From: Clostridia bacterium
GTDB lineage: Bacteria > Bacillota > Clostridia > TANB77 > CAG-508
Length of the DNA: 64,000 bases
Direction: 5' to 3'
Assembly: GCA_046964515.1 (NCBI GenBank)
Contig: JBKUYM010000001.1
Coordinates: 402,842 to 466,841 of the forward strand
The notes beneath the pieces are model-generated. The model searched no databases and was not told the DNA's origin. It saw nothing but the letters and a program-made list of their open reading frames with translations. Of the stretch, positions 1 to 52,395 are shown one piece after another; the first letter of the stretch is position 1, and the number at the start of each line of letters is the position of its first letter. The position numbers and the translations under genes are program-made.

Positions 1-477
1 GAACCCATAGGTGGATTCTTGTCAGGGATAGGCACAGGTGGAACATTAATGGGAGTAGGTAAAAAATTAAGAAAAATACATCCAGAAGCGCAAATTGTAG
101 CCATAGAGCCAGATAAAATGCCACTATTATCTAAAAATAGAGCTATTGGAAATCATAAAATAGAAGGTATTGGTGATGATTTTATTCCTGAGTTAGTAGA
201 TAGAAACATGATTGATAAAGTCATTGTGATTAATGACGAAGATGCGGTAAATATGACAAGGCTACTATCTAGGAAACTAGGTATAGGAGTAGGTATTTCT
301 TCAGGCGCCAACTTCTTGGGGTCTGTTATCTTAAATGACCGTGTAGAAAATCCAGTAGTTACGGTGTTCCCAGATGACAATAAAAAATATTTGTCCACAG
401 ATTTAGCACAAAATGTGGATAAACAAGATAATTATATATCTAATCATATTCAATTAATCGGATGGGAAGCTATATAA
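1..477 (+). CDS. cysK: Cysteine synthase / O-acetylserine sulfhydrylase, C-terminal part (5' end outside window)
   Basis: The frame is open from nt 1. The translation EPIGGFLSGIGTGGTLMGVGKKLR...GISSGANF matches the PLP-dependent CysK/CysM C-terminal region, including the GTGGT loop and the SSGAN motif. Confidence 0.75.
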   Translation, partial: EPIGGFLSGIGTGGTLMGVGKKLRKIHPEAQIVAIEPDKMPLLSKNRAIGNHKIEGIGDDFIPELVDRNMIDKVIVINDEDAVNMTRLLSRKLGIGVGISSGANFLGSVILNDRVENPVVTVFPDDNKKYLSTDLAQNVDKQDNYISNHIQLIGWEAI

Positions 478-7590: not shown

Positions 7591-7684
7591 AAAACTCATG
7601 AATAATGTTTAGAAAGAAATAGAAGAAAACAAAAACAAAAGTAAGTTATAATGAACCATGAAAATAAACAAAGGAGGAAATAAA

Positions 7685-26011: not shown

Positions 26012-26040
26012 TTGACTTTAACCAAAAGGTAATATAAAAT
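26012..26040 (+). promoter_or_regulatory. Conserved family promoter for P3 (TTGACT-17-TAAAAT, tTATAAAAT extended)
   Basis: tattgactttaaccaaaaggtaatataaaat. Near-identical modules lie upstream of P4, P5 and P6. Confidence 0.55.
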
Positions 26041-31653: not shown

Positions 31654-31855
31654 ACTCCTTTATCTTTTTATCGAGAATTATTGTACTATAAGGATGGGTA
31701 AAAAGCAAGAGAAAATTAAAATATGCAAAAGGATTGTAGTATAAAATGTCAAAATAGGAATAAAGAGACAAGTAGTATTTTGTCGAAAATCATTGACAAA
31801 TGATTTTTGTTAAACTATGATAAATTTAAGAAATAAAAGGAGACCATAGGGAAAC

Positions 31856-34085: not shown

Positions 34086-34820
34086 TTATATACCAAATAC
34101 AGTTATAATATTATAAGCATTAGGAACCACGTTCGTACGATTTGCATATAAAGTAACCGTTTTTCCTTTTAAATTTTTTGTATCATATTTTACTAAATAT
34201 ACTTTATTAGAAAAAGTAGAATAATCTATATAATCAAGTGGTGTAGCATCTACCGAAAGTTTTAATTGTGAGGTATAACTAGAAGTAAACCAATTTCCAT
34301 TTGTTAGTAAATAAAGGGTATCTTTGGTTACCGCGAAATCAACAGAGGTAGTGTTGGAACTAAAATTATAATTGGCATAATAAACAGATAAATCACCGCC
34401 AGCTATATTTTGTATGTTTTGAGCCATAACTTGAGCACTATCAGTGTAGGCAGTAGAAATTCCCTTATTTGTAATTGCTTGTGCAATAGTTGTTCTAAAT
34501 TGTGTGAATTCTGTTTGAAGGGTAAGAAATTTATTTTGTAAATCTGTTAAATCTTTTTGTAGATTAGAGATAATTTCATCCTTTTTATGGGATTCTTCAT
34601 CTTCTGCAATTTCACCATTAGATACTAACTCATCATAAAGTTGGTTTAATGCAATAGCCTCTGTTTGACTAGCCAAAGTGATATTTTCTTTTGCCTGTTT
34701 TGCTTTTGTGATAATGCCATTATCGCCAACTAATGTATTGATACTTACACCTGCTAAAATAATTAATATAATAATGGTTATTACTAAACTGACTAAGGTA
34801 ATACCAGATTTTTCTCTCAT
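34086..34820 (-). CDS. Pilin-like N-terminus family protein P4 with a coiled-coil and a beta-rich C-terminal domain
   Basis: N-terminus MREKSG|ITLVSLVITIIILIILAGVSINTLVGDNGIITKAKQAKEN. Its first ~45 aa and 5' flank are ~95% nt-identical to P6. Shares the EDEESHKKDEIIS motif with P2. Confidence 0.7.
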   Translation of the reverse strand: MREKSGITLVSLVITIIILIILAGVSINTLVGDNGIITKAKQAKENITLASQTEAIALNQLYDELVSNGEIAEDEESHKKDEIISNLQKDLTDLQNKFLTLQTEFTQFRTTIAQAITNKGISTAYTDSAQVMAQNIQNIAGGDLSVYYANYNFSSNTTSVDFAVTKDTLYLLTNGNWFTSSYTSQLKLSVDATPLDYIDYSTFSNKVYLVKYDTKNLKGKTVTLYANRTNVVPNAYNIITVFGI

Positions 34821-34962
34821 TTATCATCCCTCTTTTTCTTATGTTTTCCCGTTTTTTTAATTTAATACTTTTCTTAGATAATTCTATATTACCAATCGGT
34901 TAATGTCAATGCCTTATTTTTGGATATTTTTCTTAATTTTAGATGCGATTTCTATAAAAATA
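34735..34962 (-). repeat. Inverted repeat arm 1: conserved promoter, leader and 5' coding module of the family; partner at 52168-52395
   Basis: The reverse complement aligns to 52168-52395 at about 95% identity over about 230 nt. Confidence 0.7.
34881..34909 (-). promoter_or_regulatory. Conserved family promoter for P4 (minus strand)
   Basis: On the minus strand it reads ttgacattaaccgattggtaatatagaat. Confidence 0.55.
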
Positions 34963-35439
34963 GAATATAGAAAAGAAGGTGGAAAGACAATACACTTTAT
35001 GTAATGTTTAGAACTATATAATATATATCCATAGAAAATGACAGATACCGTTAATGAAAGATTGAATGAATTATGGCAACAGCAGATTTTTCAAAAGATT
35101 TATTCAAATAAATTCAAGAATTGATTTTAAGGTGATGATTTATCACAAAAAGTAAAGAGTATGGAAATAAATATAAGAAGTGTAATGTAGATATTTAAGA
35201 AGTTGTAATGAAAATATTAAAATAAATAGACTTTAAAAATGCATTTAATACAGTGTTTTTTATAAATATTAAGATAAAGGCTCCATTGAGAATGAAAAGT
35301 TATCTCAAATTGGAACTCTTTTTAACATCTTTCTGATTGATAGACATATCAATGATTATGACTATTTGTATTCACAAGATAACATAAAAAGAATTGAAGA
35401 AATAAAGAATGAAAAGGAAAATAGAAAAATAAAAGAAGA

Positions 35440-35468
35440 TTGACATTAACCAAAAGGTAATATAAAAT
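35440..35468 (+). promoter_or_regulatory. Conserved family promoter for P5
   Basis: gattgacattaaccaaaaggtaatataaaat, followed by the ggaaaacataagaaaaaaagaaggggag leader. Confidence 0.55.
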
Positions 35469-35526
35469 TATCGTATAAGAAAATATAAAAATGGAAAACA
35501 TAAGAAAAAAAGAAGGGGAGATAAGC

Positions 35527-37257
35527 ATGAGAGAAAAAGTAAACCAAAAGGGTATTACATTAATAGCATTAGTGATTACAATTATCGTATTAATCATTTT
35601 AGCAGGTGTAGCCATTAATACTTTAGTAGGAGAGAATGGGATTATTACACAAGCACAAAGAGCGAAAAATGAAACCGCACAAGGGCAAAAAGAAGAAGCA
35701 GGAGGATTAGCTAGTTTAGAACAACAAATAGATGAGGCAACTGGAAAAACGTATATAACAGAAAAGGGCGTTAATAAACCACGATTAGCAACAGGAATGA
35801 AAGCCATCAAATTTACAAATCCAAGTGAAAGTGCTAAAGGAGAAGCACAAGACAGTAGCGAAAATGATACGGAATGGTATGATTATAATAGTAAAAAGTG
35901 GGCGAATAGCCAGACAGAAGATGGAAGTATGTGGGTATGGATACCTAGATATGCGTATAAAGTAAATGATAATCAAACCTTTGATATAAAGTTTTTAATA
36001 GGAACAACGGATAATTATTATGATGAAAATGGACAAATACAAACAGCCAAAAGATGTAACAGTGTAGATGAAAATGTAGATACAACAACAGGATATACGG
36101 TGCATCCAGCTTTTACAGATGAAACAGCGATAAGTTATAGAAATGGAGGATGGGATAAAGAGCTAACTGGAATATGGGTAGCAAAATTCGAAGCAGGATA
36201 TGCTAGTGGAAATAATAGCGCAACAGTTAAGGCAAGTAGTGTTAGCTATTCACAAAACACTTCTAGTGTAAGAGGAGTAGAAAGAGGACAAAGTACGGAA
36301 GGGAGTGAATTGTCTCGTAACTGGTTAGATGGAATATATGGAAGTACAAATACAGCTATAAAATATCCAACCTTCCAAGGAACCACGTATAGTATGAATT
36401 ATATCAATCAAAATGATGCTTATAATATAGCCAAGGCTATGACAGAGAGTGGAAATATTTATGGATTAACTGCAAGTGCAGACTCCCACTTAATGAAAAA
36501 TAGTGAATGGGGTGCAGTAGCATACTTAAGTCAAAGTAAATATGGATTAAATGGAACAGATATTGCGATTAATAATGTTAACTTAAACAGTGGAGGAGTA
36601 GCAAGAACGCAGACAGCAGGAAAAAGTGGTGTAGATAGTGTATATGCTATAACCGGATGTACAACAGGAACAAATAATGGAGCGGAAAAAGTAACAACAA
36701 TTGCCAATATTAATGGTACAACAGCTAATACAGCAGTAGACGGTGTATATACATGGAATCAGTTAAGTGGAACAAAGGCTAGTTCATCAGGTACTATATA
36801 TGGAATTTATGATTTAAGCGGAGGACTATGGGAAAGAACAGCAGCTTATGTAGCTAATGAAAATGAAAATTTAAAAACTTATGGTTCTAGTATAGCTTAT
36901 GATGGTTCTACTTTAAAAACAACAAGTACAAAATATACAACAGCTTATCCATTTGATAGCACTATAGATAATACTAGTATTATAAATAATGATACAAATT
37001 TAAATACGGCAAGTGCCAACAATTATAAGAAAGATACTTCAATCTATGGCGACGGTATCCAAGAGACTTCAATAACCGGAACTGGAAATACTAGTTGGTA
37101 TGGTGACTACTCGTATTACACAGGCTTAAATAATCCATTCTCACTTCGTGGCGGTTATTTCTGGCATGGATCAGGTGCTGGTTTGTTCTATTTCCATCGC
37201 AGTCCTGGTGGCAGCGGTTACGGTGGCGGGTTCCGCACGGTGCTGGCTGTGTCCTAG
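35527..37257 (+). CDS. Pilin-like N-terminus family protein P5 with an FGE-sulfatase (C-type-lectin-fold) C-terminal domain
   Basis: N-terminus MREKVNQKG|ITLIALVITIIVLIILAGVAINTLVGENGIITQAQRAKNE. C-terminal motifs SEWGAVAY, GGLWER, RGGYFWHG...GFRTVL. Internal Met after a GAAGGGGAG RBS; the ORF track extends to 35491. About 75% identity to P3. Confidence 0.7.
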   Translation: MREKVNQKGITLIALVITIIVLIILAGVAINTLVGENGIITQAQRAKNETAQGQKEEAGGLASLEQQIDEATGKTYITEKGVNKPRLATGMKAIKFTNPSESAKGEAQDSSENDTEWYDYNSKKWANSQTEDGSMWVWIPRYAYKVNDNQTFDIKFLIGTTDNYYDENGQIQTAKRCNSVDENVDTTTGYTVHPAFTDETAISYRNGGWDKELTGIWVAKFEAGYASGNNSATVKASSVSYSQNTSSVRGVERGQSTEGSELSRNWLDGIYGSTNTAIKYPTFQGTTYSMNYINQNDAYNIAKAMTESGNIYGLTASADSHLMKNSEWGAVAYLSQSKYGLNGTDIAINNVNLNSGGVARTQTAGKSGVDSVYAITGCTTGTNNGAEKVTTIANINGTTANTAVDGVYTWNQLSGTKASSSGTIYGIYDLSGGLWERTAAYVANENENLKTYGSSIAYDGSTLKTTSTKYTTAYPFDSTIDNTSIINNDTNLNTASANNYKKDTSIYGDGIQETSITGTGNTSWYGDYSYYTGLNNPFSLRGGYFWHGSGAGLFYFHRSPGGSGYGGGFRTVLAVS

Positions 37258-37507
37258 CAGATATATAAAGAATGCTTTGTATATAGGATAATAATAAACT
37301 AAATAAGTAACTTAAATGAAAGTAAAATAAAAAAATAGGATGAAGGAGATAAAATTCTCACCTATTTTTATGTAAGAGCATGAATGTATAAGATATAAAG
37401 AAAAAAGGTTAATTCGTAATAAGATAATCATTATTTTAACTTTATTATATATACAAGTTACGACACAAACTATATGATAAAAATAGAAATTGTAAAAAAT
37501 TCCTTAA

Positions 37508-37546
37508 AAAAACCGAGCAGAAAGGGTAAAAATTCTACTCGGTTTT
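37508..37546. terminator. Hairpin terminator in the P5-rpoB intergenic region
   Basis: ccgagcagaa-agggtaaaaa-ttctactcgg, with A-runs and T-runs on either side. Confidence 0.45.
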
Positions 37547-37710
37547 TTCTTAGAAAATGAAATGTAATCATGAAAAATTGTATCTCAAATGGTATCATGT
37601 TAATATGAAAAACAAAACATATGCCAAAACAATTAAAATTACCACTAGACATTGAAAGAATGATGGATTTTATAATTCTACAAAATTATTTGAAAAATCT
37701 ATAAAAAAGA

Positions 37711-37740
37711 TTGACAAGATTACCCTTTTTGCAGTATACT
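37711..37740 (+). promoter_or_regulatory. Putative sigma70 promoter for rpoB-rpoC (TTGACA-18-TATACT) with a ~400-nt leader
   Basis: ttgacaagattaccctttttgcagtatact. Confidence 0.45.
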
Positions 37741-38150
37741 AAAATAGTATAAGGAGTTTTATCGCCAAAAGAGAAAGATAAAACAAAAAGATAACGCCAA
37801 ACATAGAAAAATAGTGGGGTTGATCAAAATATTCACGTTAAAAATGAGAGATAAGTAATAGGGAACAAAAGCAAAGATAGTTGGCAAAAAATAATATATT
37901 GCCGACATATCTTTTTGTTGCCTATTTGTCTGTTTAAGTACATTTTAATAAGAAGAGGAATTAGCTATATCTTATTAGTAAAGGTTTGTTTTTTATAAGC
38001 AGGAAAACAGATAGGTATGTATGAGATAATTGTATAAGAGGGACTTCTTTTTATCTATAAATTTTATTCACAAAAGTAGCTAAAATGTTAAAAATACATT
38101 TTATGCGTTAAAATTTGTATCTGCTTAAATTTATTTAGGGGTGATTGGTT

Positions 38151-41100
38151 TTGACAAAGGATATTAAACATGAAAAGTGCACACGTAAAACGTTTGCAAA
38201 GATTGGCGATTTTATAGAAATGCCAAACTTAATTAAAGTCCAAAAAGATTCTTATGATTGGTTCATAGAAGAAGGACTAGGTGAAGTATTAAAAGATATT
38301 TCTCCAATTGTTGACTATTCTGGTAATTTGGTTCTTGAATTTTTCGATTATTACATGGAAGAGAAAACAAAATATTCTGTAGAAGAAGCAAAAGAAAGAG
38401 ATGCAACTTATTCTACAAGATTACATGTAAAGGTTAGACTAATCAATCGTGAGACAGGTGAAATTAAAGAGCAAGAAATTTATCTTGGTGATTTCCCACT
38501 TATGACAGATAGCGGTACCTTTATTATTAATGGTGCAGAAAGAGTAGTTGTTAGTCAGTTAGTTCGTTCACCAGGTTGCTATTATGCCGATGATTATGAT
38601 AAAACCGGAAAGAAGATTTATACTTCTACGGTTATGCCAATACGTGGTGCATGGATTGAATATGAAACAGATGGAAACGATGTATTTTGGGCAAGGGTAG
38701 ATAGAACTAGAAAAATACCAGTTACATCACTTTTAAGAGCAATAGGGCTTGCAACAGATGAACAAATAGTGGCTCTATTTGGGGAAGAGCCAAAAATTTT
38801 AGCAACACTTCAAAAAGACCCAATTAAAACTGCCGATGAAGCATTAATTGAAATTTACAAGAAATTAAGACCGGGAGAACTTCCAACAGTAGATGCTGCT
38901 AGAAATTTATTCAATGGTTTGTTCTTTGATCCTAGAAGATATGATTTGGCAAAAGTAGGAAGATACAAGTTTAATAAAAAATTAAACTTAAGCTTTAGAA
39001 TTACAGGACTAGAAGCTTATGAGGATATTATTGATCCAACAACAGGGGAAGTTTTAGTAGAAAAAGGCAATATTATCTCTAAAGACGTAGCAGAAGAAAT
39101 TCAAAATACAGGCTTAAATATTGTTGATGTAAAAGTAGGAGACAGCAAGGTTAGAATCATTGGTAATGGAACAGTTAATATTCATAAAGTAGTTACAAAC
39201 ATAGATATTTCTGATTTACATTTCAAAGAAGAAGTTAATTATGAAGTACTAAAATCTATTTTAGATACAACAGAAGAAAAAGACTTACATAATGTATTAA
39301 AAGAAAGAAAAGAAGAGTTAATACCAAAACATATTACAAATGAAGATATCATTGCTTCTATAAATTATTTATTAAATTTAGACCATGGATTAGGAAATGT
39401 AGATGATATCGATCATCTAGGAAATAGACGTATTCGTTGTGTTGGGGAGTTATTACAAAATCAGTTTAGAATTGGTTTAACGAGATTAGAAAGAGTTGTT
39501 CGTGAAAGAATGACGATTCAAGACTTGGATGTTGTAACACCACAAACTTTAATTAATACAAAGCCAATTACTTCTTCTATTAGGGAATTTTTTGGAAGTT
39601 CTCAGTTATCACAATTTATGGATCAAACAAATCCATTATCAGAACTTACTCATAAGAGAAGAATTTCTGCATTAGGACCTGGTGGACTTTCAAGAGAAAG
39701 AGCAGGATTTGAAGTACGTGATATTCACTATACCCATTATGGTAGATTATGTCCAGTAGAATCACCAGAAGGACCAAATATCGGACTTATCTCTGCATTA
39801 TCTTCTTTTGCAATTATTAATGAATATGGATTTATTGAAACACCATATAGAAAAGTAGATCATACAACTGGAAAGATAACGGATATTGTGGAATATATGC
39901 CAGCTGATGAAGAAGATAATTACATTATTGCACAAGCATCAGAACCATTAGATAAAGAAAATAAGTTTGTTAATAAAAGAATTCGTGTACGTCATAGAGC
40001 AGAAATTACAGAAGTAGATGCTGATCAAGTAGACTACATAGATGTTTCACCAAAAGAATTAGTTTCTGTAGCAGCTGCTATGATTCCTTTCTTAGAGCAT
40101 GATGACGTAAAACGTTCTCTAATGGGCTCTAACATGCAACGTCAAGCTGTACCACTTTTAACAACAGAAGCACCTATCGTCGGAACAGGAATTGAATATA
40201 GAGCAGCAAAAGATTCTGGTATTACAGTAACTGCTAAAAATGAAGGGGTTATAGAGAAAGTTTCAGCAGAAGAAATTCAAGTTAGAAATAAAAAGAATGA
40301 AATAGATACTTATCGTTTGCGCAAATTTAAAAGAACAAATGGTGGAACTTGTATCAATCAAAGACCAGTAGTTACAAGAGGAGAAAGAGTAAAAGAAGGA
40401 GACATTTTAGCAGATGGACCATCTACTAAAAATGGAGAAATGTCTTTAGGAAAAAATGTATTAATCGCTTTTACTACTTGGGAAGGTTATAACTATGAAG
40501 ATGCTGTTTTAATTAGTGAAAGACTTGTTAAGGAGGACGTTTATACTTCTATTCATATTGAAGAATATGATTGTGAATGTAGAGATACGAAATTAGGTCC
40601 AGAAGAAATTACAAGAGACATTCCTAATGTGGGGGATGATGGCTTAAAAGATTTAGATGAAAATGGTATTATTCGTATTGGTGCAGAAGTAAGACCTGGA
40701 GATATCTTAGTTGGTAAAGTAACACCAAAAGGAGAAACCGAATTAACAGCAGAAGAAAGATTGCTTCGTGCTATCTTTGGAGAAAAAGCAAGAGAAGTAA
40801 GAGATACTTCTTTAAGAGTACCTCATGGAGAAGCGGGTACGATTGTAGATGTAAAAATCTTTACGAGAGATAACTCTGATGAATTAGGACCTGGTGTTAA
40901 TCAAGTAATTCGTTGTTATATTGCTACAAAGAGAAAAATTTCTGTTGGTGATAAAATGGCTGGTCGTCATGGAAATAAAGGTGTTATTTCTAGAATTCTT
41001 CCAGAAGAAGATATGCCATTTATGCCAGATGGTACGCCAGTAGATATTGTTCTTAACCCACTTGGTGTTCCTTCTCGTATGAACTTAGGTCAAGTTTTAG

Positions 41101-41888
41101 AAGTTCATTTAGGAATGGCAGCAAGAGCCTTAGGATGGAAAGTAGCAACACCAGTATTTGATGGTGCAACAGATAAAGAAATTGAAGAATTATTAGAAGA
41201 AGCAGGTATGCGTAGAGATGGAAAAACGGTTCTTTATGATGGAAGAACAGGAGAAGCATTTGATAACCCAATTACCGTTGGTGTTATGTATATGTTGAAA
41301 CTACATCACTTAGTAGATGATAAAATCCATGCTCGTTCAACAGGACCATATTCTTTAGTAACGCAACAACCTCTAGGTGGTAAAGCACAATTTGGTGGAC
41401 AACGTTTTGGAGAGATGGAAGTTTGGGCATTAGAAGCCTATGGCGCAGCGTATACTTTACAAGAAATGTTAACTGTAAAATCAGATGATGTAGTAGGACG
41501 TGTAAAGACCTATGAAGCCATTGTAAAAGGAGAAAATGTTCCAGAACCAGGTGTTCCAGAATCTTTCAAAGTATTAATAAAAGAATTACAATCTTTAGGT
41601 TTAGATGTACGTTTGTATTCAGAGGATAATCAAGAACTAGAATTAAAAGAACATATTGATGAAGGTATTGACTATGAAGAGACAAAAGTAGGTTCTAATG
41701 TTTTAGATGAAGCAGAATTAGAAGATAGTTACATTGAAGCTGACGAAGATACGGAGGATATGCTATTAGATACAGAAGAAGATACCGATGAATTATTTGA
41801 AGAACTAGATGACGAAGGAGACGATTCTATTTTTGATAATGATTTAGCAGAAGATAATCTTTTAAATGATGAAGGGGAATTAGAATAG
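38151..41888 (+). CDS. rpoB: DNA-directed RNA polymerase subunit beta
   Basis: Unmistakable RpoB blocks ([30 protein letters not shown], the rifampicin cluster [42 protein letters not shown]). TTG at 38151 sits 7 nt after the AGGGGTGA RBS; there is an alternative TTG at 38145. About 60-aa acidic C-terminal tail. Confidence 0.9.
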
Positions 41889-41905
41889 GAAAAGAGTTGT
41901 CGTAT

Positions 41906-42226
41906 ATGGATACTTCTTTTGTACCAAGAATTGTTGTAGAAGCAAATAACTATAGAAAACCTAGGATAGTGGATTATAGAGAGATAATAGAAGAGGTACA
42001 AATCCTGCTTATGAAAGAAGGATACCAAGTTGCCTTTAATGCAGTAGAAATCTATAATAGATTAACGCAAAAATTTTCATTTAGAGAAGATATGCGCAAA
42101 GAAGAAATCTTGGATACTATAAGAATGTGCCTAAAAAGGTTAGAAAAACAACAGTTTCTAAAAAGAAATGAAGAAAATCAATATGTTATAAAAAGGCAGA
42201 GAGAAGAAAGTCTTATAGAAATGTAA
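41906..42226 (+). CDS. Small hypothetical protein encoded between rpoB and rpoC
   Basis: 107-109-aa ORF filling the rpoB-rpoC gap. Sense strand. GGAAAAGAG RBS-like element. No recognisable motif. Confidence 0.4.
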   Translation: MDTSFVPRIVVEANNYRKPRIVDYREIIEEVQILLMKEGYQVAFNAVEIYNRLTQKFSFREDMRKEEILDTIRMCLKRLEKQQFLKRNEENQYVIKRQREESLIEM

Positions 42227-42338
42227 TTGAATAGGTTAAAAGGAAATAGAAATGGACAAAATAAGATGCACAGCGCAGGATCATTACTATGACATAATAA
42301 CCAGGCAAAAACTAAAAAATCAGGGGGGCTAACCAAAG

Positions 42339-45300
42339 GTGGATGAATTAGAAATTTTTGATAAGATCAAAATAGGATTAGCATCAGACGAGAAAATTAG
42401 AGAATGGTCAAAAGGAGAAGTTAAAAAACCAGAGACTATTAACTATAGAACTTTAAAACCAGAAAAAGATGGTCTATTCTGTGAAAGAATATTTGGACCA
42501 ACAAAAGATTGGGAATGTCATTGTGGAAAATACAAAAGAGTTAGATATAAAGGGATTGTCTGTGATAGATGTGGTGTAGAAGTTACCAAAGCAAAAGTAA
42601 GACGTGAAAGAATGGGACATATTGAACTTGCTGCGCCAGTTGCTCATATATGGTATTTTAAAGGTATTCCAAGTAGAATTGCTTTAATGTTAGACATTTC
42701 ACCAAGAAGTTTAGAAAAAATCGTCTATTTTGCTTCTTATATTGTTATTGATAAGGGAACATCTGGTTTAATGAAAACACAAGTATTATCAGAAAAAGAA
42801 TATCATGAAGCAGTAGAAAAATATGGTGTTGGCAGTTTTAAAGCAGAAATGGGAGCAGAAGCTTTAGAAAAATTATTAAGGGAAATTGATTTAGATAAAC
42901 TATCTGCTAAATTAAAGAAAGAATTAGAAACAGCAAGTGAGCAAAAGAAAGCAAAATTAATTAAAAGATTAGATACTGTAGAATCTTTTAGATTATCTGG
43001 AAATAGACCTGAATGGATGATTATGAATGTAGTACCAGTTATTCCACCAGAGTTAAGACCAATGGTACAATTAGATGGTGGTAGATTTGCTACATCTGAC
43101 TTAAATGATTTATATAGAAGAGTAATTAATAGAAATAATCGTTTAAAAAGATTAGTAGAATTAGGTGCTCCAGAAATTATTAAAAGAAATGAAAAAAGAA
43201 TGCTTCAAGAATCAGTAGATGCGTTAATTGATAATGGAAGACGTGGAAGACCTGTAACTGGAGCCGGAAATAGACCATTAAAATCTTTATCAGATATGCT
43301 AAAAGGTAAACAAGGTCGTTTCCGTCAAAACTTACTTGGTAAACGTGTTGACTATTCCGGACGTTCTGTTATCGTTGTAGGACCAGAACTTAAAATTTAT
43401 CAATGTGGTCTTCCAAAAGAAATGGCAGTAGAATTATTCAAACCATTTGTTATGAAAGAATTAGTGGGAAGAGGTATTGCTCACAATATTAAAAATGCAA
43501 AAAGAATGGTAGAAAGATTACGTCCTGAAGTATGGGATATTTTAGAGGATGTAATTAAAGACCATCCTGTTATGCTAAACCGTGCACCTACGCTACATAG
43601 ACTTGGCATTCAAGCATTTGAACCTGTTTTAGTAGAAGGTAGAGCTATTAAATTACATCCATTAGTTTGTACAGCATTTAATGCTGACTTTGATGGTGAC
43701 CAAATGGCTATTCACGTTCCACTATCACCAGAAGCACAGGCAGAAGCAAGATACTTAATGCTATCTGTTAATAACTTATTAAAACCACAAGATGGTAAAC
43801 CAGTAACTGTTCCTACACAAGATATGATTTTAGGAAGTTATTATCTAACTATGGAAGTCGATGGCGAAGTAGGAGAGGGAAATTATTTCTCTTCACCAGA
43901 AGAAGCTATTATTGCCTATGAAAACAAAGAAGTGGGAATGCATGCTAAAATATTTGTTAGAATGAGCAAAATAGAAAATGGTGTGGAAAAACATAAAAAA
44001 GTAGAAACAACAGTTGGTAGAATTATTTACAATAAAGGTATTCCACAAGATTTAGGATTTGTTGACAGAAGCAATCCAGATAATGAATTTGAATTAGAAA
44101 TTAATTTTGTTGTTAAAAAGAAAAATCTTGGAAAAATTATTGAAAAATGTATCAATGTTCATGGATTAAATCGTTCTGCAGAATTGTTAGATTATATTAA
44201 AGCCACTGGATTTAAATATTCTACAACAGGTGCTATTACAGTTTCTATCGATGATGTTAAAGTACCAGAAGCGAAAAAAGAAATTCTAGAACATGCATCT
44301 AAAGAAGTAGAAACCGTATTAAAACAATATAAACGTGGTTTGATTACAGAAGAAGAAAGATATAACTCTGTTATTAAAATTTGGGAAAAAGCAACAGATA
44401 ATGTAAAAGATGCCATGAGAGATAACTTTACAAGTTTAAACCCTGTATTCATGATGTCAGAATCTGGTGCTAGAGGTAACTTAGACCAATTAAAACAAAT
44501 TGCAGGTATGCGTGGTCTTATGGCAAGTACAACTGGTAAAACAGTTGAAATTCCAATTAAGTCTTCTTTTAGAGAAGGTCTAGATGCTTTAGAGTACTTT
44601 ATCTCTGCCCATGGTGCTCGTAAAGGTTTATCAGATACAGCATTAAGAACAGCCGATTCTGGATATTTGACAAGAAGATTAGTAGATGTTTCTCAAGATA
44701 TTATCGTTAGAGAACATGACTGTGGAACACATGATGGCATTGAATTAACGGCTATAAAAGATGGAAATCAAGTTATTGAAAGTTTACAAGAAAGATTAAT
44801 TGGTAGATATCCATTAGAAGATATTGTTCATCCAGAAACAGGAGAATTAATAGTAGATACGAATACTTTAATTAATGACAAAATTGCAGATAGCATTGTA
44901 GAAGCTGGTATTGAAAACGTTTTAGTTCGTAGCGTATTTGGTTGTAGAACAAAATATGGTGTTTGTTCAAAATGCTATGGTATGGGTCTTGCAAGTAGAC
45001 AAGAAGCAGATATTGGTGAAGCAGTTGGTATTATTGCTGCACAATCTATTGGTGAACCTGGTACACAGCTTACTATGAGAACGATTCACTCTGGTGGTGT
45101 TGCTGGTGTTGCCGATATTACACAAGGTCTTCCTAGAGTTGAAGAATTATTTGAAGCTAGAAAACCAAAGGGATTAGCAATTATTTCTGAGATAGATGGA
45201 ACTGTTAAAATTTCTGATGAGAAAAAGAGAAAAGAAATCATTGTTACTTCAAAAGACGATAGTAAAACATATGTAATTCCATTTGGATCAAAATTAAAAG

Positions 45301-45899
45301 TAAAAGAGGGAGATACTGTTACAGCAGGTCAACCACTTACAGAGGGATCTGTTAATCCAAATGAATTATTATTAATTAAAGGACCGGCTGGTGTATATAA
45401 TTACTTAGTACAGGAAGTACAAAAAGTATATAGAAACCAAGGTGTTGATATTAATGATAAGCATATTGAAGTTATTGGAAGACAGATGTTAAAGAAGATA
45501 AGAGTAGAAGATAATGGGGATACTACTTTATTTGCAGGTTCTTTAGTGGATATGTATGAATTTGAAGCAATTAATAATCAGGCAATTCAAGAAGGTAAAC
45601 GTCCTGCAACAGGAAAACGAGTATTATTAGGTATTACAAAAGCTTCTCTTGCAACAGATAGTTTCTTATCTGCAGCTTCTTTCCAAGAAACAACAAGAGT
45701 GTTAACAGAAGCCGCTATTAAAGGAAAAGTAGATGAATTAATTGGCTTAAAAGAAAATGTGATTATTGGTAAATTAATTCCTGCAGGTACTGGTCTTGCT
45801 AAATATAAAAATACCCATATTAGTACAGAAGAAGATTCTGTAGAAGCACAAACGGAGGATAAGCAAGATACTGAAAAAATAGAAGAAGATGTAGGATAA
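42339..45899 (+). CDS. rpoC: DNA-directed RNA polymerase subunit beta'
   Basis: The N-terminus [57 protein letters not shown] is near-identical to B. subtilis RpoC. NADFDGD catalytic motif. GTG start. Confidence 0.9.
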
Positions 45900-45913
45900 T
45901 AAGGTAAAAAGTA

Positions 45914-45950
45914 AGATAGGAGAGATTTATTCTTCTATCTTATTTTTCAT
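45914..45950 (+). terminator. Intrinsic terminator after rpoC
   Basis: aagatag-gagagatttattctt-ctatctt plus attttt. Confidence 0.5.
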
Positions 45951-46007
45951 TTACAAAATAAAACAAGAAAGGTATAATAAGAAAAAAGAAAGGATAGGAG
46001 AAAAAAT

Positions 46008-47297
46008 ATGAAATTATATATAAAAAATGCCACTTTGTTATCTATGGATGAGAAAAGAGAAAAAGTAGAAGAAAATATGGATATCGAAATTTCTGGGAAC
46101 CAGATAATAAAAATAGGTAAAAACCTAACCGGTGAAGAAAATGCAAAAATGATAGATGCTACAGGAAAGGTGGTAATGCCAGGACTCATTAATACCCATG
46201 CACATATTCCGATGAGTATTTTTAGAGAAACCGTGGATGGACTTTCTCTACAGGAATGGTTACAAGATAAAATATGGCCGATGGAAGATCAATTGACCAA
46301 AGAAGATATTTACCAAGCTTCTAAGTTGTCTTTTATGGAAATGATTCGAACAGGAACTACCACTATTAATGATATGTATTTTATGACAGAATCTATTATA
46401 GAAGCTGCTATACAAGCAGGAATTAGATTACAAACGACTAGAACATTGACTTCTGTTGCAGGAGAAGAAGATGGACAAAAGAAATTAGAGGAATTTAAAG
46501 AATTATTAGAAAAATATAGAAATCAGAATAGTCGCATTACTTTTAATGCAGGTATCCATGGATTATACACTTCTAGTAGAGAATATGTGGATAAATGTAT
46601 TGCTTTTGCAAAAGAAGAAGCATTAAGGATACATATGCATTTTTGTGAAAATACAAAAGAAGTAGAAGATATTAAACAAGCTTATGGAGAAAGTCCAGTT
46701 AGTGTTATAGAAAAGGACTTTAAAGGAATCGATGTGTTATTAGCACATTGTGTAAAATTAAATAAAGAAGAAATTGCTAGGATGGCAACATTACCGATTC
46801 ATATTTCTCATTGTCCAGTTAGTAATTTAAAATTAGGCTGTGGGGTAGCCAATATTGCACAAATGGTAAATGCAGGTATGAATGTTAGTTTAGGCACAGA
46901 TGGGCAAGGAAGTGGTAGTAATTTAGATTTATTTGAAACTATGAAATATACAGCTTTATTGCAAAAAGGGATACAAGAAGATGCGAAACAATTACCTGCT
47001 TATCAAGTTATACAAATGGCAACAATGAATGGTGCTAAAGCATTAGGAATGGAAAGTCAAATAGGTAGTATTGAAGAAGGTAAGCTTGCAGATATGATCA
47101 TTTTAAATTTAGATACCTGTGTAATGCAACCAGTTAATGATTTATGTTCAGACATTGTATATAATGCAAAGGGAGAAAATGTAGAGACTACCATAGTTAA
47201 TGGGGAAATCTTAATGGAAAATAAACAATTAAGAGGCATAGAAGGGCAAGAAGTTTATGAGAAGTGTAGAAGCATTATAGAAAGAATAAAACAATAA
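46008..47297 (+). CDS. mtaD: Amidohydrolase of the 5-methylthioadenosine/S-adenosylhomocysteine deaminase type
   Basis: MPGLINTHAHIPMS metal-binding motif and Amidohydro_1 architecture with HxH...H...H..D. 429 aa. Confidence 0.7.
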   Translation: MKLYIKNATLLSMDEKREKVEENMDIEISGNQIIKIGKNLTGEENAKMIDATGKVVMPGLINTHAHIPMSIFRETVDGLSLQEWLQDKIWPMEDQLTKEDIYQASKLSFMEMIRTGTTTINDMYFMTESIIEAAIQAGIRLQTTRTLTSVAGEEDGQKKLEEFKELLEKYRNQNSRITFNAGIHGLYTSSREYVDKCIAFAKEEALRIHMHFCENTKEVEDIKQAYGESPVSVIEKDFKGIDVLLAHCVKLNKEEIARMATLPIHISHCPVSNLKLGCGVANIAQMVNAGMNVSLGTDGQGSGSNLDLFETMKYTALLQKGIQEDAKQLPAYQVIQMATMNGAKALGMESQIGSIEEGKLADMIILNLDTCVMQPVNDLCSDIVYNAKGENVETTIVNGEILMENKQLRGIEGQEVYEKCRSIIERIKQ

Positions 47298-47438
47298 AGT
47301 GTAAACAAATTTAATTACATGAAAAGATCTAGTATACCAAAACATCTATATTAGGTCTTACTTTTTTATTCCATATGTAATAAGAAAATTATCAGGTATG
47401 GAAAATATAAAGAATAGAAAGAAAGGTAAAAAGAGAAA

Positions 47439-47720
47439 ATGAATTACCAAATAAAAGAAGAAAATCAAAAATTTTTATTAATCGAAGAAGAAAAAGAAAT
47501 TGGAAATTTAAAGTTTATAAAAGATGTAGAAGGTGATTTTATAATTGAATCTATCTTCATAGAAGAAGCCTATAGAGGAGAAGGATATGCTCAAATTATT
47601 TTTAATGAATTTATTGAAAAGGTAAAAAAAGAGAAACGTAAAGTAATACCAATTTGTACATATGCACAAGCACAATTTCGAAAAAGAAAAAGTATACAAT
47701 ACTTATTAAAAAATGTATAA
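47439..47720 (+). CDS. Small GNAT-like N-acetyltransferase-fold protein (Acetyltransf_CG type)
   Basis: 93 aa. The ...IESIFIEEAYRGEGYAQ...ICTYA... pattern is typical of the short GNAT-like family. Confidence 0.5.
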   Translation: MNYQIKEENQKFLLIEEEKEIGNLKFIKDVEGDFIIESIFIEEAYRGEGYAQIIFNEFIEKVKKEKRKVIPICTYAQAQFRKRKSIQYLLKNV

Positions 47721-47779
47721 ATAAGAAAATAGTTGTCTTGAAAACAAAATTGTAGAAGAGTACGCATGGGCAGGAGTCC

Positions 47780-47808
47780 TTGACAAAGCCTAGAAATAAG
47801 AGTACAAT
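47780..47808 (+). promoter_or_regulatory. Putative sigma70 promoter for gdpP (TTGACA-17-TACAAT)
   Basis: ttgacaaagcctagaaataagagtacaat. Confidence 0.5.
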
Positions 47809-47840
47809 AGAGTTTGTAAATAGTATAAAAGGAGAATATT

Positions 47841-49874
47841 ATGCCCCAAAATAATAGTAGAAAATTATTTGACAAATTTATATCTAAGACAAAAATCTAT
47901 TTAGTAATTATAGCTATACTTTTAATTATAGTATGTTGTTATGAAGTAAATTATATTACACCAGCTATTTTATTATATATCTTAATTTTAATGTATGCTT
48001 ATTGGACAAATAATAAAAGAAAAGCAGAATTATCAGAACATATTAAGGATTTAACATTAACAGTAGACACTGCTGCTAAAAGTACTTTAATTAATTCCCC
48101 TTTTCCATTAATTATTATAGAGACAGATGGTAACATTATATGGAAAAGTTCTAAATTTATACATGAATTTGCGAATATTGATATTAATAGTTATTTAAAT
48201 AACATTGTAAGAGAGCTTAAATTAGAAATTGAAAATAGTAGTGAAGAAAATAAAAAAGAGTTAGAAGAACTGATAAAGAAACAAATAAAAATAGGAGATA
48301 AAACTTATAAAATATTAGGAGAATATGTAAAATCAAAAGAAAAAGAGAAAAATAAAGATGAAGAATATATGGCTACGCTTTATTTTATAGATGAAACACA
48401 GAACATTGAATTAGCAGAGAAATATAAAAATTCTAAAATTTGTGTTGGTATTATTATGATTGACAACTATGAAGAAATTATGCAAAGAATTGCCAGCGAA
48501 GATAGACCACAAATTGTAGCTCAAATAGAAAAGACACTATATGATTGGGCTAATGCTTTTGAAGGTTTGATTGTAAAATCAGATCGTGATACGTTTGTTG
48601 TTATCTTAGAACAAAAATATATTGAAATATTAGAAGAAAATAAATTTAATATTTTAGATACCATTAAGGAAATCAGTATACCAGGAAAAATACAATCTAC
48701 TCTTAGTATTGCTATTTCTAATGAAGGAAAGTCAAATTATGAGAAATATAAATCTGCTAGTGCTGCAATGGATTTGGCTTTAGGACGTGGTGGAGACCAA
48801 GCCGTTATTAGAAAAGATGGAAAATATAACTTTTTTGGTGGAAGAGCCCAAGAAATGGAAAAAAGAACAAAAGTAAAGGCTAGAATTGTATCCCATGCTT
48901 TAGAAGAATTAATGCAGGAATCTAAAAATGTTATGATTATGGGACATGCGAATAGTGATATAGATGCTATGGGATCTAGTTTTGGAATATATCGTTTAGC
49001 CAAAGCAATTGGAAAAGAAGCCTATATTATTAATAATACGTTTGGTATTAGTATTGACCATTTTATGGAAGAAGCTAAGAAACAAGAAGAATATCAAGAA
49101 GCAATTCTTAATAAAGAAAGAGCGATTGAACTAATTGGACCAGACACATTATTAATTGTGGTAGACACACATAAAAAGAACTATGTAGAAGTTCCAGAAT
49201 TACTAGAAAAAACAAATAAAATTGTTATAATAGATCATCATAGAAGAAGTCCAGACTTTATTGAAAATGCGATTTTAACTTTTCACGAAGTGTATGCTTC
49301 TTCAGCAGCAGAACTAGTAACAGAATTAATAGAATATTCTGAAAATGATATAAAATTAACACAAATAGAGACAGAAGGTTTGTATGCTGGTATTATGATG
49401 GACACAAAAAACTTTACTTTTAAAACAGGTGTTAGGACTTTCGAAGCGGCAGCCTATTTACGTAAATGTGGAGTAGATATTATAAAAGTAAAAAAATGGT
49501 TCCAGAGTGATTTAGATACTTATCATAAAATTTCAGAAATTGTAGCAAAAGCAGAAATTGTTAATACCACTATAGGGATTTCTATTTATGAAAAAGAAGA
49601 TGATAATGCAAATATTATTTGTGCTAAAGCAGCAGATGAGTTATTAACCATTAGTGATATTACAGCCTCTTTTGTAATTGGTAATTTAGGAGATAAAGTA
49701 TGTATTAGTGGACGTTCTATAGGCGATATTAATGTACAAGTTATTTTAGAAAAATTAGGAGGCGGCGGACACATTACATTAGCGGGAGCTCAAGTAGAAG
49801 GTATGAATACAGAAGAAGTAAAACAAGAATTAATGAATAGAATTAATGAATATTTTACAGAAATTTCAAGTTAA
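47841..49874 (+). CDS. gdpP: Cyclic-di-AMP phosphodiesterase GdpP (2TM-PAS-degenerate GGDEF-DHH/DHHA1)
   Basis: Two N-terminal TM segments. DHH motifs (MGHANSDIDAMGS, IIDHHRRS). DHHA1 GGGH motif (GGGGHITLAGAQ). Position relative to rplI-dnaB is typical. Confidence 0.85.
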   Translation: MPQNNSRKLFDKFISKTKIYLVIIAILLIIVCCYEVNYITPAILLYILILMYAYWTNNKRKAELSEHIKDLTLTVDTAAKSTLINSPFPLIIIETDGNIIWKSSKFIHEFANIDINSYLNNIVRELKLEIENSSEENKKELEELIKKQIKIGDKTYKILGEYVKSKEKEKNKDEEYMATLYFIDETQNIELAEKYKNSKICVGIIMIDNYEEIMQRIASEDRPQIVAQIEKTLYDWANAFEGLIVKSDRDTFVVILEQKYIEILEENKFNILDTIKEISIPGKIQSTLSIAISNEGKSNYEKYKSASAAMDLALGRGGDQAVIRKDGKYNFFGGRAQEMEKRTKVKARIVSHALEELMQESKNVMIMGHANSDIDAMGSSFGIYRLAKAIGKEAYIINNTFGISIDHFMEEAKKQEEYQEAILNKERAIELIGPDTLLIVVDTHKKNYVEVPELLEKTNKIVIIDHHRRSPDFIENAILTFHEVYASSAAELVTELIEYSENDIKLTQIETEGLYAGIMMDTKNFTFKTGVRTFEAAAYLRKCGVDIIKVKKWFQSDLDTYHKISEIVAKAEIVNTTIGISIYEKEDDNANIICAKAADELLTISDITASFVIGNLGDKVCISGRSIGDINVQVILEKLGGGGHITLAGAQVEGMNTEEVKQELMNRINEYFTEISS

Positions 49875-49895
49875 AATATAAAGAGTCAAGTAAAA

Positions 49896-49945
49896 AGAAG
49901 AACAAACAAGATGGTTTGTTCTTTTTTTATGCAAATTATGTGAAT
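49896..49945 (+). terminator. Intrinsic terminator plus copy D of the recurrent motif
   Basis: agaacaaacaagatggtttgttct, then ttttttATGCAAATTATGTGAATAgc. Confidence 0.55.
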
Positions 49946-50024
49946 AGCAGTTTAGCTAATTATAAAAAAATAATGGAAAGGAAAACGAGAGATAGGATAA
50001 AATTAAAAAAACGAAGAAAAAGGG

Positions 50025-51146
50025 GTGAAAAAGTTGAAAAAACAAAAGAAAAGGTATTTTTTTATGGTGATATGTCTGTTCTATTTTATTAGTTTTCCTA
50101 TTAAAAGTTTAGCAACAAATCAAACAATTAATTGTTTAGCAGAATATAAAGATAGTATAACTTATGATATTACCATTACAGGTCTAGAGCCAGAAGAAGA
50201 TTATGACTATTATATCATTATTTCCTTAAAAAAAGAAGTAACAGAAAATGATTTCTTTAGAGCTTTAGGAAATTCACTATCCATTACATATGAAGCAGAA
50301 ACAAAAAAATGGAAAACAACAACCATGTGGTCTTTAGACGGTGTAAAACCACATGATGAATTTGAAAGACAAGGACAGTATTATCTTCATGTAGCAAAAA
50401 AGCTGAAAAGTAGTATCCAGTATGAAATAATAGCAGGACCTATTCCGGTAGATACACCAAAATTGCCACCATTAGGAGAAAGAATTAAAGTCAGTGCACC
50501 TTCTGGATTAAATACCACATATAGTATCCAAGTAAATGCCCTTAATACAATGTTTTATAATAGGGTACAAAGAACCATTCACTTTTATTTAGGAGAAATT
50601 ACAGATACAACACTACTAAAACAATTACAAAACCATGAAAAAGATGCTTATGAAAATTTATTACAATATGCCAAAAAGCAAAAAGGAAATCTAAAAAAAG
50701 ATAGCTTTCAAGATACCAAAACAGGAGTCTTAGATTATAATATTTTAGCCGATTATAAAATAGAGGCAGGGAAACATTATTTTCTATATGTTATATTAGA
50801 TGATGAAAATGGAACCTATGTACCGGTAGAAGATATAGAAGCTTATAATGGGGAATGGAATTATACAAAAGGTGAAGGCGGATTAAGAAAGTTTTCCTAT
50901 CAAGAAGAGCAAAATAAAGAAGATAAACCAAATACAAACAACATGAATCAAGTAATAAATAATGAAACGATAGAAGAAAAACAAAATAACCAAATGAATG
51001 AAATTGTTACTAGGGATAATACCGTTGCAAATACAAAGATACCACAGACAGGAGATAGAAATATAAAAGTAATTTTGCTAGTAAGCATCATTATAGTAGG
51101 TATTATTATTTTTATAAAATATAAAAAATATAAAGAAACACCATAA
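50025..51146 (+). CDS. Sortase-anchored cell-surface protein (IPQTG sorting signal)
   Basis: Signal peptide. About 330-aa ectodomain. C-terminal IPQTGD, hydrophobic segment and KYKKYK tail, which is a sortase-substrate architecture. Confidence 0.65.
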   Translation: MKKLKKQKKRYFFMVICLFYFISFPIKSLATNQTINCLAEYKDSITYDITITGLEPEEDYDYYIIISLKKEVTENDFFRALGNSLSITYEAETKKWKTTTMWSLDGVKPHDEFERQGQYYLHVAKKLKSSIQYEIIAGPIPVDTPKLPPLGERIKVSAPSGLNTTYSIQVNALNTMFYNRVQRTIHFYLGEITDTTLLKQLQNHEKDAYENLLQYAKKQKGNLKKDSFQDTKTGVLDYNILADYKIEAGKHYFLYVILDDENGTYVPVEDIEAYNGEWNYTKGEGGLRKFSYQEEQNKEDKPNTNNMNQVINNETIEEKQNNQMNEIVTRDNTVANTKIPQTGDRNIKVILLVSIIIVGIIIFIKYKKYKETP

Positions 51147-51159
51147 GAAAGGAGAAAAA

Positions 51160-51669
51160 ATGATATTTTTAGTTATTATCATAATAGTTATCTTGCTTGC
51201 CATTTATATGTTTATTAGTATAAAAGTAGATAAGTTAAAATATAGAGCTGAGCAACATATATTAAAAGATACACCATTTAATAGAGCCAATATAGATGCC
51301 ACCATGGATGGTGCTATAGGAGGAGAACTTATTAAGAAATTTTTAGCAGATTTTCCCCATTATACACAAGAAAGTTTATTTCAATTATTTCAAAAATGTG
51401 CGGAAAATATTAGAAGTAAAAATAGGATAGAAATTATGTCTGAAAAAGTAACGCAAAAGATGGCAAATGACAAAAAAATTGAAATACTAGCGCAGAAGCA
51501 ATATAAAAGAATGAGTATGACAGCGTATGGAAGAGGAAGATTAAATGTTTCTATTATCTATGCAGACGCTAGAGATGAATATAATTTGAGTCTATTTTTT
51601 AAAATACAAGAAAATACATTATTGCTGGATGAATATGTTATACAAAAAGGCAATATGTTAGGTTTTTAG
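51160..51669 (+). CDS. Hypothetical N-terminally anchored membrane protein
   Basis: 169-aa ORF with a strong N-terminal TM. Tightly packed after the surface-protein gene. Confidence 0.5.
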   Translation: MIFLVIIIIVILLAIYMFISIKVDKLKYRAEQHILKDTPFNRANIDATMDGAIGGELIKKFLADFPHYTQESLFQLFQKCAENIRSKNRIEIMSEKVTQKMANDKKIEILAQKQYKRMSMTAYGRGRLNVSIIYADARDEYNLSLFFKIQENTLLLDEYVIQKGNMLGF

Positions 51670-51732
51670 ATAAACCATTGAAAAAACAGATATAACAAAG
51701 AAAAAAATAAAAAAGAAACGGAGAAAAAGAAA

Positions 51733-52047
51733 ATGAGTGATAAAGCAAAAAATATTTTATCTTATATAATTCCAATTTGCGGAATTGTATTTATGTTAGT
51801 AAAAGATAGTAGTAAAGAAGTAAAATTAGTAGGAGCACAAGCTACCACTTTGTGGGCTATGTATTTCATTTTAAGAATAGGCTATAGCTTAATACCAATT
51901 TATATCCCCATGTTTTCTACACTAATTTATGGTGCTTACATTGTTTTTGGTATTATAGGAATTATAAAAGTATGTAAAGAAGAAAATCTAGAACTACCAT
52001 TAGTAGGAAAAATTACACAATCCGTATTTGGAAAAGTCATCAATTAG
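51733..52047 (+). CDS. Small multi-TM membrane protein (DUF4870-like)
   Basis: 104 aa, two or three TM segments. Confidence 0.45.
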   Translation: MSDKAKNILSYIIPICGIVFMLVKDSSKEVKLVGAQATTLWAMYFILRIGYSLIPIYIPMFSTLIYGAYIVFGIIGIIKVCKEENLELPLVGKITQSVFGKVIN

Positions 52048-52167
52048 GGACGTGCTTGTATTGTTTAGATAGTTATAAAAATGAAAGAGTCAGTGAATAT
52101 AGTTGCTGACTCTTTGTTTATAGAATTACATAAAGTATCTTGCTTTTCTATCTCTTTTTTAATATTC

Positions 52168-52395
52168 TTTTTTATAGAAATCGCATCTAAAAATAAGAAA
52201 GATATTCAAAAATAAGGCATTGACATTAACCGATTGGTAATATAAAATTATCTAAGAAAAGTATTAAATTAAAAAAACGGGAAAACATAAGAAAAAGAGG
52301 GATGATAAATGAGAGAAAAATCTGGTATTACCTTAGTCAGTTTAGTAATAACCATTATTGTATTACTGATTTTAGCAGGAATTAGTATCAATACA
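52168..52395 (+). repeat. Inverted repeat arm 2; partner at 34735-34962
   Basis: About 95% identity to the reverse complement of arm 1, covering promoter, leader and the first ~85 nt of the CDS. Confidence 0.7.
52220..52248 (+). promoter_or_regulatory. Conserved family promoter for P6
   Basis: cattgacattaaccgattggtaatataaaat. Confidence 0.55.

Follow-up and report, generated by a model that had tools for sequence, protein, structure and literature searches.

The inverted paralogs tufA and tufB of Salmonella enterica evolve in concert by gene conversion, and up to 50% of the recombination events between them invert the interval, according to PMC6735719 (citing Abdulkarim & Hughes 1996 and Hughes 2000). 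The same paper puts the growth-rate cost of the tufA/tufB inversion at ~8% and states that it is not found in natural isolates. According to a kingdom-wide survey (PMC11040001), inversions arise through homologous recombination on inverted repeats, and bacteria with a high gene-strand bias have fewer strand-switching inversions and fewer of the underlying repeats. Here, an inverted repeat is described from a 64,000-nucleotide (nt) stretch of a Clostridia bacterium (contig JBKUYM010000001.1, positions 402,842 to 466,841, assembly GCA_046964515.1), designated as the window. Its arms lie at the 5' ends of two paralogous genes, P4 and P6, and enclose a 17-kb block including rpoB, rpoC and gdpP. 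An earlier sequence-only reading had regarded this repeat as a candidate for a large-scale invertible genome structure, or as a record of how the gene family spread. The locus is a further case of a kind of system already known, in which inverted paralogous repeats evolve in concert and now and then invert the interval by homologous recombination. Taken as a whole, it is probably explained by a repeat of paralog 5' modules that undergoes gene conversion and occasional homologous inversion, with no programmed switch.

The P4/P6 inverted repeat

The inverted repeat was confirmed as genuine. An inverted-repeat search of the window recognized two arms of 295 nt (34682-34976 and 52153-52447) that are 91% complementary and have 17,176 nt between them. 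Beyond these limits, a weaker stretch of 49 nt (78%), offset by an indel of 1 nt, extends the homology as far as 35005 and 52125, and the arms aligned with blastn show 90.8% identity over 325 nt. The longest perfect run between the arms is 114 nt (34883-34770 / 52246-52359), whereas exact inverted matches in 20 Markov-shuffled versions of the window reach no more than 15-18 nt. The sequence-only reading had given a ~230-bp repeat, ~95% identical, at 34735-34962 and 52168-52395. Precise alignment over these coordinates gave 12 mismatches in 228 nt (94.7%), in agreement with the estimate; the repeat does lie there, with the two ranges offset against each other by one base. Relative to the ATG, the core of the arms (-143..+50) is 96.4% identical with 7 mismatches in 194 nt, the next section (+51..+140) has 18 mismatches in 90 nt, and the section beyond (+141..+230) has 50 in 90, which is the background (identity ~44%). 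At the arm ends, homology fades gradually on both sides. The coding part of the homology, previously taken as ~85 nt, runs further, to ~138 nt.

Judged from its predicted signals, each arm amounts to the entire 5' end of a gene, composed of a sigma-70-type promoter, an A-rich leader, a ribosome-binding site (RBS) and ~47 codons. A promoter, a leader and the first part of the coding sequence (CDS) had been assigned to the arms from the sequence alone, and these are found there as 11/12 promoter sites and a leader of ~55 nt, with the RBS GAGGG and the start of the CDS. The ~47 codons encode MREKSG followed directly by ITLVSLVITIIILIILAGVSINTLVGDNGIITKAK. The motif TTGACATTAACC-N4-GGTAATATA occurs four times in the window, upstream of the family members P3, P4, P5 and P6, versus 0.01 expected, and the leader GGAAAACATAAGAAAAA is common to these four genes. 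At the family promoter sites (26012-26036, 34885-34909, 35440-35464, and 52220-52244), a spacer TTAACC-N4-GGTAAT is conserved between the -35 and -10 elements and precedes this leader. The conserved spacer and leader suggest that the family members share a regulator site and are co-regulated.

Rfam at the gathering threshold detected nothing in the window, the arm leader included, and the folding of leader and 5' CDS RNA is no better than that of shuffled sequence (z = -0.19); a riboswitch or structured leader in the arm was rejected on these grounds. A metagenome scan with the exact 34-nt leader/start returned 0 matches. A broader scan with a 17-mer returned 120 matches, mostly due to chance, and only two human-gut contigs (L102 and L132) have a related module, with ~75% identity. 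The promoter motif was not found in the related-species loci at the stringency used, at which the promoter module appears to be species-level.

At least seven genes of the window have a common N-terminus, with starts at 7658, 13080, 26107, 34820 (minus strand), 35527, 52309, and 58295. P4 is the sole minus-strand member of this family in the window. The likeness between P4 and P6 is confined to the first 65 residues (75%), and their bodies are unrelated; by eye, the P6 body looks like two similar halves. P4 is identical to NCBI MFR2534015.1 (locus tag ACLS95_02120), encoded on a 550-kb contig of a metagenome-assembled genome (MAG). The same contig encodes a 273-residue member of the 90% cluster of P6, which is named "type II secretion system protein" by NCBI. 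Thousands of metagenomic proteins have the N-terminus of the family, and nothing else, in common with it.

The family scores 14.7-19.1 bits (P4 14.7) with the N_methyl model PF07963 and does not reach the cut-off of 21.2, and the matches to the GspG and PilA models are only weak. Two prepilin features are present, Gly at position -1 and a hydrophobic helix (KG followed by ITLIALVIT...). The Glu at position +5 is missing, and Ser or Ala occupies this position in 7/7 copies. Neither a prepilin peptidase nor an assembly ATPase was found within the 64-kb window, and no Pfam or NCBIfam family fits the bodies of the P4/P6 family apart from the weak pilin-type matches. The proteins resemble pilin-like, N-terminally anchored or secreted proteins with a pseudopilin-like hydrophobic helix. 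In relatives, pilin-like genes occupy other intergenic sites. Not all strains of the species have P3 and P7; strain L242, for example, lacks P3. The pilin-like family appears to be a mobile layer over a fixed backbone, in which P4 would be the copy inserted backwards.

Other members of the family show repeats of their own. P3 (26107-27831) and P5 (35527-37257) are full-length paralogs with 74% amino acid identity. The two are direct repeats separated by 9.4 kb, in which a stretch of 300 nt reaches 88%. If P3 recombined with P5, the event would delete or duplicate a two-component system, tim44, band7, and P4. P7 (58295-60196) combines the pilin-like N-terminus with an fn3-like region and Cys-rich tandem repeats, three of 57 nt at 59537-59764 (GGGCYTxPVYHxH motifs) and four of 45 nt at 59968-60147 (CGKTAGSTIxSY). 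Strains L222, L223, and L230 lack the P7 region 58210-60079.

Sequence exchange between the arms

Gene conversion is used here in the sense of non-reciprocal homologous recombination. The mismatches between the arms are clustered, with a sharp difference between the core (7/194) and the section next to it (18/90; Fisher p = 1.7e-5). Within codons 1-17 of P4 and P6 every site is identical, synonymous sites included; in codons 18-47, 14 codons differ, 8 of them synonymously. The identity covers non-coding DNA as well. Ordinary paralog pairs of the family are 65-81% identical over the 5' module, versus 96% for the P4/P6 core. Such sharply bounded identity has the signature of a recent exchange tract laid on an older duplication.

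Comparison among strains of the species revealed mosaic patterns. The window is 99.4% identical to strain L083 over 4.1 kb, and the 194-nt module accounts for 6 of the 24 differences (p = 7e-4). P6 of the window has the P4 base in 5 of these 6 positions. P6 of strains L205, L231, and L084 has the P4-type AAT at +51/57/59, and the reverse, P6-type bases in P4, is seen in strain L242 at -64 and +71..74. These patterns indicate that P4/P6 gene conversion is recurrent and acts in both directions, with end points differing by strain.

Backbone, orientation and junctions of the rpoB-rpoC block

The genes of the block were identified from open reading frames (ORFs) with Pfam and NCBIfam searches, and those named between the arms by the sequence-only reading (rpoB, rpoC, an mtaD-like amidohydrolase, GNAT, GdpP, and an LPXTG-like surface protein) were confirmed (Table 1). 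Relatives of rpoC come from MAGs of uncultured gut Clostridia, for example Clostridium sp. CAG:571, CAG:273, and CAG:245. Synteny was compared with 80 loci from related species, and the counts concern the loci spanning the region. Wherever the region is spanned, the relatives are collinear in the order tim44+ band7+ rpoB+ rpoC+ (mtaD+) gdpP+ (o104+) rplI+ dnaB+ tilS+. In these relatives, band7 and rpoB are often only a few hundred nt apart, and the distance between gdpP and rplI goes down to 25 nt. P4 and P5 in the band7/rpoB gap, and surf-o169-o104-P6 in the gdpP/rplI gap, are probably lineage-specific insertions, because the relatives keep the backbone without them. These insertions, and the exchange of sequence between the arms by conversion, bear out the earlier suggestion that the repeat is a record of how the family spread.

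Since the gene order of the related species is collinear with the window, the block of the window appears to be in the ancestral orientation. Synteny in relatives had been proposed as a check on the invertible structure, and its outcome goes against it: the spanning related-species loci are collinear and without the repeat, and none is reversed. The GC skew is +0.19 to +0.29 along the whole window, the block included, and 42 genes are on the plus strand and 6 on the minus strand. Both arms are apparently within one replication arm. As they lie in one stretch of positive GC skew, an inversion would place the whole block of ten genes, with rpoBC among them, head-on to replication.

In assemblies of the same species, the parental left junction (P5-U4-arm-P4) was found in L001, L002, and L242, the last at the end of a 305-kb scaffold. 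The parental right junction (o104-arm-P6-rplI) was found in at least six contigs (L083, L205, L207, L230, L231, and L232), plus near-duplicates. Among these, L230 is a 67.7-kb scaffold that extends from rpoC to a PBP gene on a single strand (rpoC-...-gdpP-...-P6-rplI-dnaB-...). Many further contigs end inside the arm.

The exception is the contig JBKVFH010000042.1 of GCA_046983985.1 (L214, the same as L208). This contig of 8,833 nt contains the predicted recombinant left junction (U6-arm-P4), with the order RR-HK-...-Tim44-Band7-P4(-)-o104(-)-o169(-)-surf(-). Against the inversion product built from the window, in which both ORFs and both promoters are intact, 8,830 of its 8,833 nt aligned with 99.76% identity, and both flanks are at least 99.8% window-like. 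The change from P6-type to P4-type bases takes place inside the arm, between -103 and -64. The P6 contig of the same MAG, L226, begins at +43, that is, it stops at the arm. Because one public MAG contig carries the exact predicted junction, the balance tips slightly toward an inversion of the block having occurred in nature. No orientation call was possible with Logan contigs (k = 31), because the diagnostic sites are at least 39 nt apart.

Table 1. Positions of the repeat arms, promoter-like sites and genes in the window
Feature	Position	Strand	Remarks
P4	34086-34820	-	244 aa (amino acids); pilin-like N-terminus (MREKSG followed by ITLVSLVITIIILIILAG...), coiled-coil segment, C-terminal body unlike P6
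Left arm, 5' module of P4	34682-35005	-	~324 nt; core 34770-34962; distal 34977-35005 ~78%, 1-nt indel
P4 promoter-like site	34881-34909	-	TTGACA-17-TAGAAT; 11/12 matches, best site of its region
Inter-arm segment	35006-52124		17.1 kb; all genes +
U4, unique spacer	35006-35439		sequence that an inversion would bring beside P6
P5 promoter	35440-35468	+	same type; divergent from the P4 promoter
P5	35527-37257	+
rpoB	38145/38151-41888	+
Small ORF	41897-42226	+	109 aa, without family match
rpoC	42339-45899	+
Amidohydrolase (mtaD-like)	46008-47297	+
GNAT	47439-47720	+
gdpP	47841-49874	+
LPXTG-like surface protein (surf)	50025-51146	+
o169	51160-51669	+
o104	51733-52047	+	DUF4870-like
Right arm, 5' module of P6	52125-52447	+	core 52167-52359; from repeat search and alignments
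P6 promoter-like site	52220-52248	+	TTGACA-17-TAAAAT; 11/12 matches, best site of its region
P6	52309-53130	+	273 aa; N-terminal 65 aa as P4 (75%), then unrelated body

Several features in and around the block vary or are unusual. The non-coding stretch upstream of rpoB (37258-38144, ~890 nt) is unusually long; it contains a strong promoter-like site at 37711-37740 and matches nothing in Rfam. In this lineage, rplJL does not precede rpoB. The spacer between rpoB and rpoC ranges from ~40 nt to 1.7 kb across related species, and the 109-residue ORF in this position was called as 106 residues in the same-species contig L233. L230 has an additional gene of 403 residues after rpoC. Between the amidohydrolase and gdpP (47298-47840), the short GNAT gene is replaced by a UvrD-like helicase (630-721 residues) in other strains, at 3761-5926 in L230 and 2476-4368 in L231. 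A second rearrangement at the UvrD-like gene was considered and rejected; a longer flank revealed simply a strain-variable gene between mtaD and gdpP, in the parental orientation. The lineage-specific surf has an IPQTG sortase-type C-terminal anchor (sub-threshold NF053819) and is the most strain-variable gene of the block, with 95-98.5% identity versus >99% for its flanks. Outside the block, a strain-variable indel patch (31704-31868) covers the upstream region and N-terminus of tim44 (310 vs 316 residues in L214), and several assemblies break nearby. A DUF362 / 4Fe-4S gene (8489-9608) is in two overlapping ORFs, 8489-9088 and 9009-9608, a split that may reflect a frameshift, a pseudogene or an assembly error.

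Explanations and comparison with known systems

In the favoured explanation, the repeat would be the 5' module of two paralogs from a multicopy family, not a dedicated recombination site. P4 and P6 would be located in lineage-specific islands inserted into a conserved backbone of core genes, and as P4 is on the opposite strand, the two modules would form an inverted repeat around rpoBC. Recurrent gene conversion, as the mosaics indicate, holds the central ~190 nt near-identical, while the outer parts of the module would retain an older divergence with purifying selection on the protein. The same, presumably RecA-type, recombination resolving as a crossover would invert the 17-kb block. Such a crossover would exchange only sequence upstream of the two promoters, and would turn rpoB, rpoC, gdpP, and their neighbours head-on to replication. 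The ancestral co-directional orientation found everywhere else would fit selection against the flipped form, as the cited papers and the conserved synteny suggest. The repeat would then be a by-product of family expansion rather than a regulatory switch.

Several points weigh against this explanation. The leader in L084 is almost unchanged though its P6 CDS is only ~89% identical, so that purifying selection may be part of leader conservation, and the donor of some patches could be a paralog outside the window. The inversion itself rests on one 8.8-kb contig of one fragmented short-contig MAG. The reciprocal junction (U4-arm-P6 body) was not seen among the contigs examined, in which no aimed search was made, since P5 and the window-type P6 are not on record (exact look-ups of both window proteins returned no record). 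A P6 arm with G at -64, as in L083, would leave 153 identical nt, over which an assembler mis-join could occur. Single-nucleotide polymorphisms (SNPs) near the end of L214 are in a strain-variable gene and hint at a mixed-strain sample. A duplication or translocation of the surf-o104 island would also fit the L214 junction. The single contig, the missing reciprocal junction, the possible 153-nt stretch and the SNPs also speak for a static repeat, in which the arms exchange short conversion tracts, the block never inverts detectably, and L214 is an assembly chimera across the identical stretch. The static repeat accords with the uniformly parental state of the other informative contigs (three left, at least six right), with the spanning related-species loci, none of which has a reversed block, and with the frequent breaks of assemblies inside the arm, a hard repeat for short reads. 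It is harder to reconcile with the junction itself. Window-type arms leave only 38 identical nt at the switch (-102..-65), which is probably under the usual final k-mers (55 or more, our own assumption about the assembler), so that these k-mers would have to exist in real reads. The contig was assembled at the junction with two long unique flanks, window-like on either side of the join, while the P6 contig breaks at the arm, where only the short U4 spacer would follow on the P6 side after a real inversion; and the assembler would have passed over a well-supported U6-arm-P6 path, the parental right junction that six other assemblies resolved. The static repeat is accordingly regarded as possible but the less probable account.

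The geometry also invites comparison with a programmed element, whose block would be flipped by a site-specific invertase in phase variation of the Hin/Gin/Piv/Fim or Bacteroides inverton type. An inverted repeat over the promoter and 5' end of pilin-like genes superficially resembles pilin inversion systems, and one recombinant junction is on record. Pfam and NCBIfam searches found no serine or tyrosine recombinase and no transposase domain in any ORF of the 64-kb window, although an enzyme encoded elsewhere in the genome may act in trans. The arms are ~300 nt instead of 10-40 nt, the payload is 17 kb of core genes whose order is conserved across species, and the crossover position is consistent with generic homology. 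Since both arms have a promoter, RBS and N-terminus, inversion of 35006-52124 would alter neither P4 nor P6, and no gene would be switched on or off; that recombination inverts the block without touching the N-termini of the paralogs had been correctly foreseen by the sequence-only reading. The block is therefore not a programmed switch, given the lack of a recombinase in the window, arms ten times as long as invertase sites and a flip that rewires neither gene, and a site-specific element is very improbable. Another interpretation takes the arms for the terminal inverted repeats of a mobile element, a composite transposon or island, that imported the block; it has only the formal geometry of inverted repeats around a block on its side. 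The core genes have the same order, orientation and neighbours in related-species loci without the repeat, composition and skew pass into the flanks without a break, both arms serve as functional gene starts, and no transposase is in the window. This interpretation is effectively refuted by the related-species synteny, and its probability is negligible.

Of the large-scale invertible structure proposed earlier, the L214 junction is what stands in support, and it is weak support. All other spanning contigs and loci are in the window orientation, the GC skew is uniform, the window encodes no recombinase, and P4 and P6 would remain unchanged. The predicted inversion may have happened at least once, and it would be a sporadic homologous event and not a switch. 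It is unlikely that the 17-kb rpoB-rpoC-gdpP block is present in both orientations as a standing, possibly reversible, repeat-driven polymorphism in human-gut populations of this species. If it were, some strains or subpopulations would have their RNA polymerase operon oriented head-on to replication. Such a natural "flip-flop" would affect growth rate, the expression of rpoBC or the local rate of mutation in a strongly strand-biased bacterium.

Few features of Bacillota genomes are as conserved as the order of core genes and their co-orientation with replication, and rpoBC is essential and highly expressed. The present locus suggests that a growing surface-protein family can place a substrate for recombination around core genes, and that gene conversion keeps this substrate "hot", a tufA/tufB situation in an uncultured gut anaerobe. 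If L214 is genuine, it represents a natural strand-switching rpoBC inversion, with which the cost of head-on transcription could be tested in the wild. In practice, short-read assemblies of this species break at the repeat or may be misled by it, and MAG-based synteny calls at this locus need read-level confirmation.

The likeness to tufA/tufB consists in inverted paralogs homogenised by gene conversion, in an interval that the same recombination can invert, and in coding sequences that are left intact. In both cases rpoBC is in the affected neighbourhood, and PMC6735719 describes the tuf inversion as costly and rarely fixed. In the tuf case, entire genes of ~1.2 kb make up the repeats, which lie on either side of oriC at a distance of 761 kb, whereas the P4/P6 repeat is a 0.3-kb 5' module of otherwise unrelated genes. 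The P4/P6 arms are 17 kb apart, apparently in one replication arm, so that rpoBC would turn head-on, and the role of RecA is presumed. The locus also resembles the intra-replichore inverted repeats of PMC11040001, with homologous recombination within one replication arm and a strand bias of 42:6 in the window. That survey is statistical, while here a specific repeat is described with its probable origin (a paralog 5' module), its probable maintenance (gene conversion) and a candidate natural recombinant.

Site-specific switches such as Hin/Gin, the Piv-dependent pilin inversion of Moraxella, fimS and the invertible promoters of Bacteroides share with this locus an inverted repeat at the promoter and 5' end of pilin-like or surface genes. 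Unlike these switches, the P4/P6 repeat has no recombinase gene in the window, arms ten times longer, a housekeeping payload of 17 kb, and a promoter-gene wiring that inversion would leave unchanged. Mycoplasma vlp/vsp and Neisseria pilE/pilS likewise have a conserved promoter/leader/signal module on divergent bodies, and their copies recombine. No silent cassettes were seen in the window. In contrast to those systems, every copy of the pilin-like family here has its own promoter and start, and conversion appears to homogenise the 5' module instead of diversifying the expressed body.

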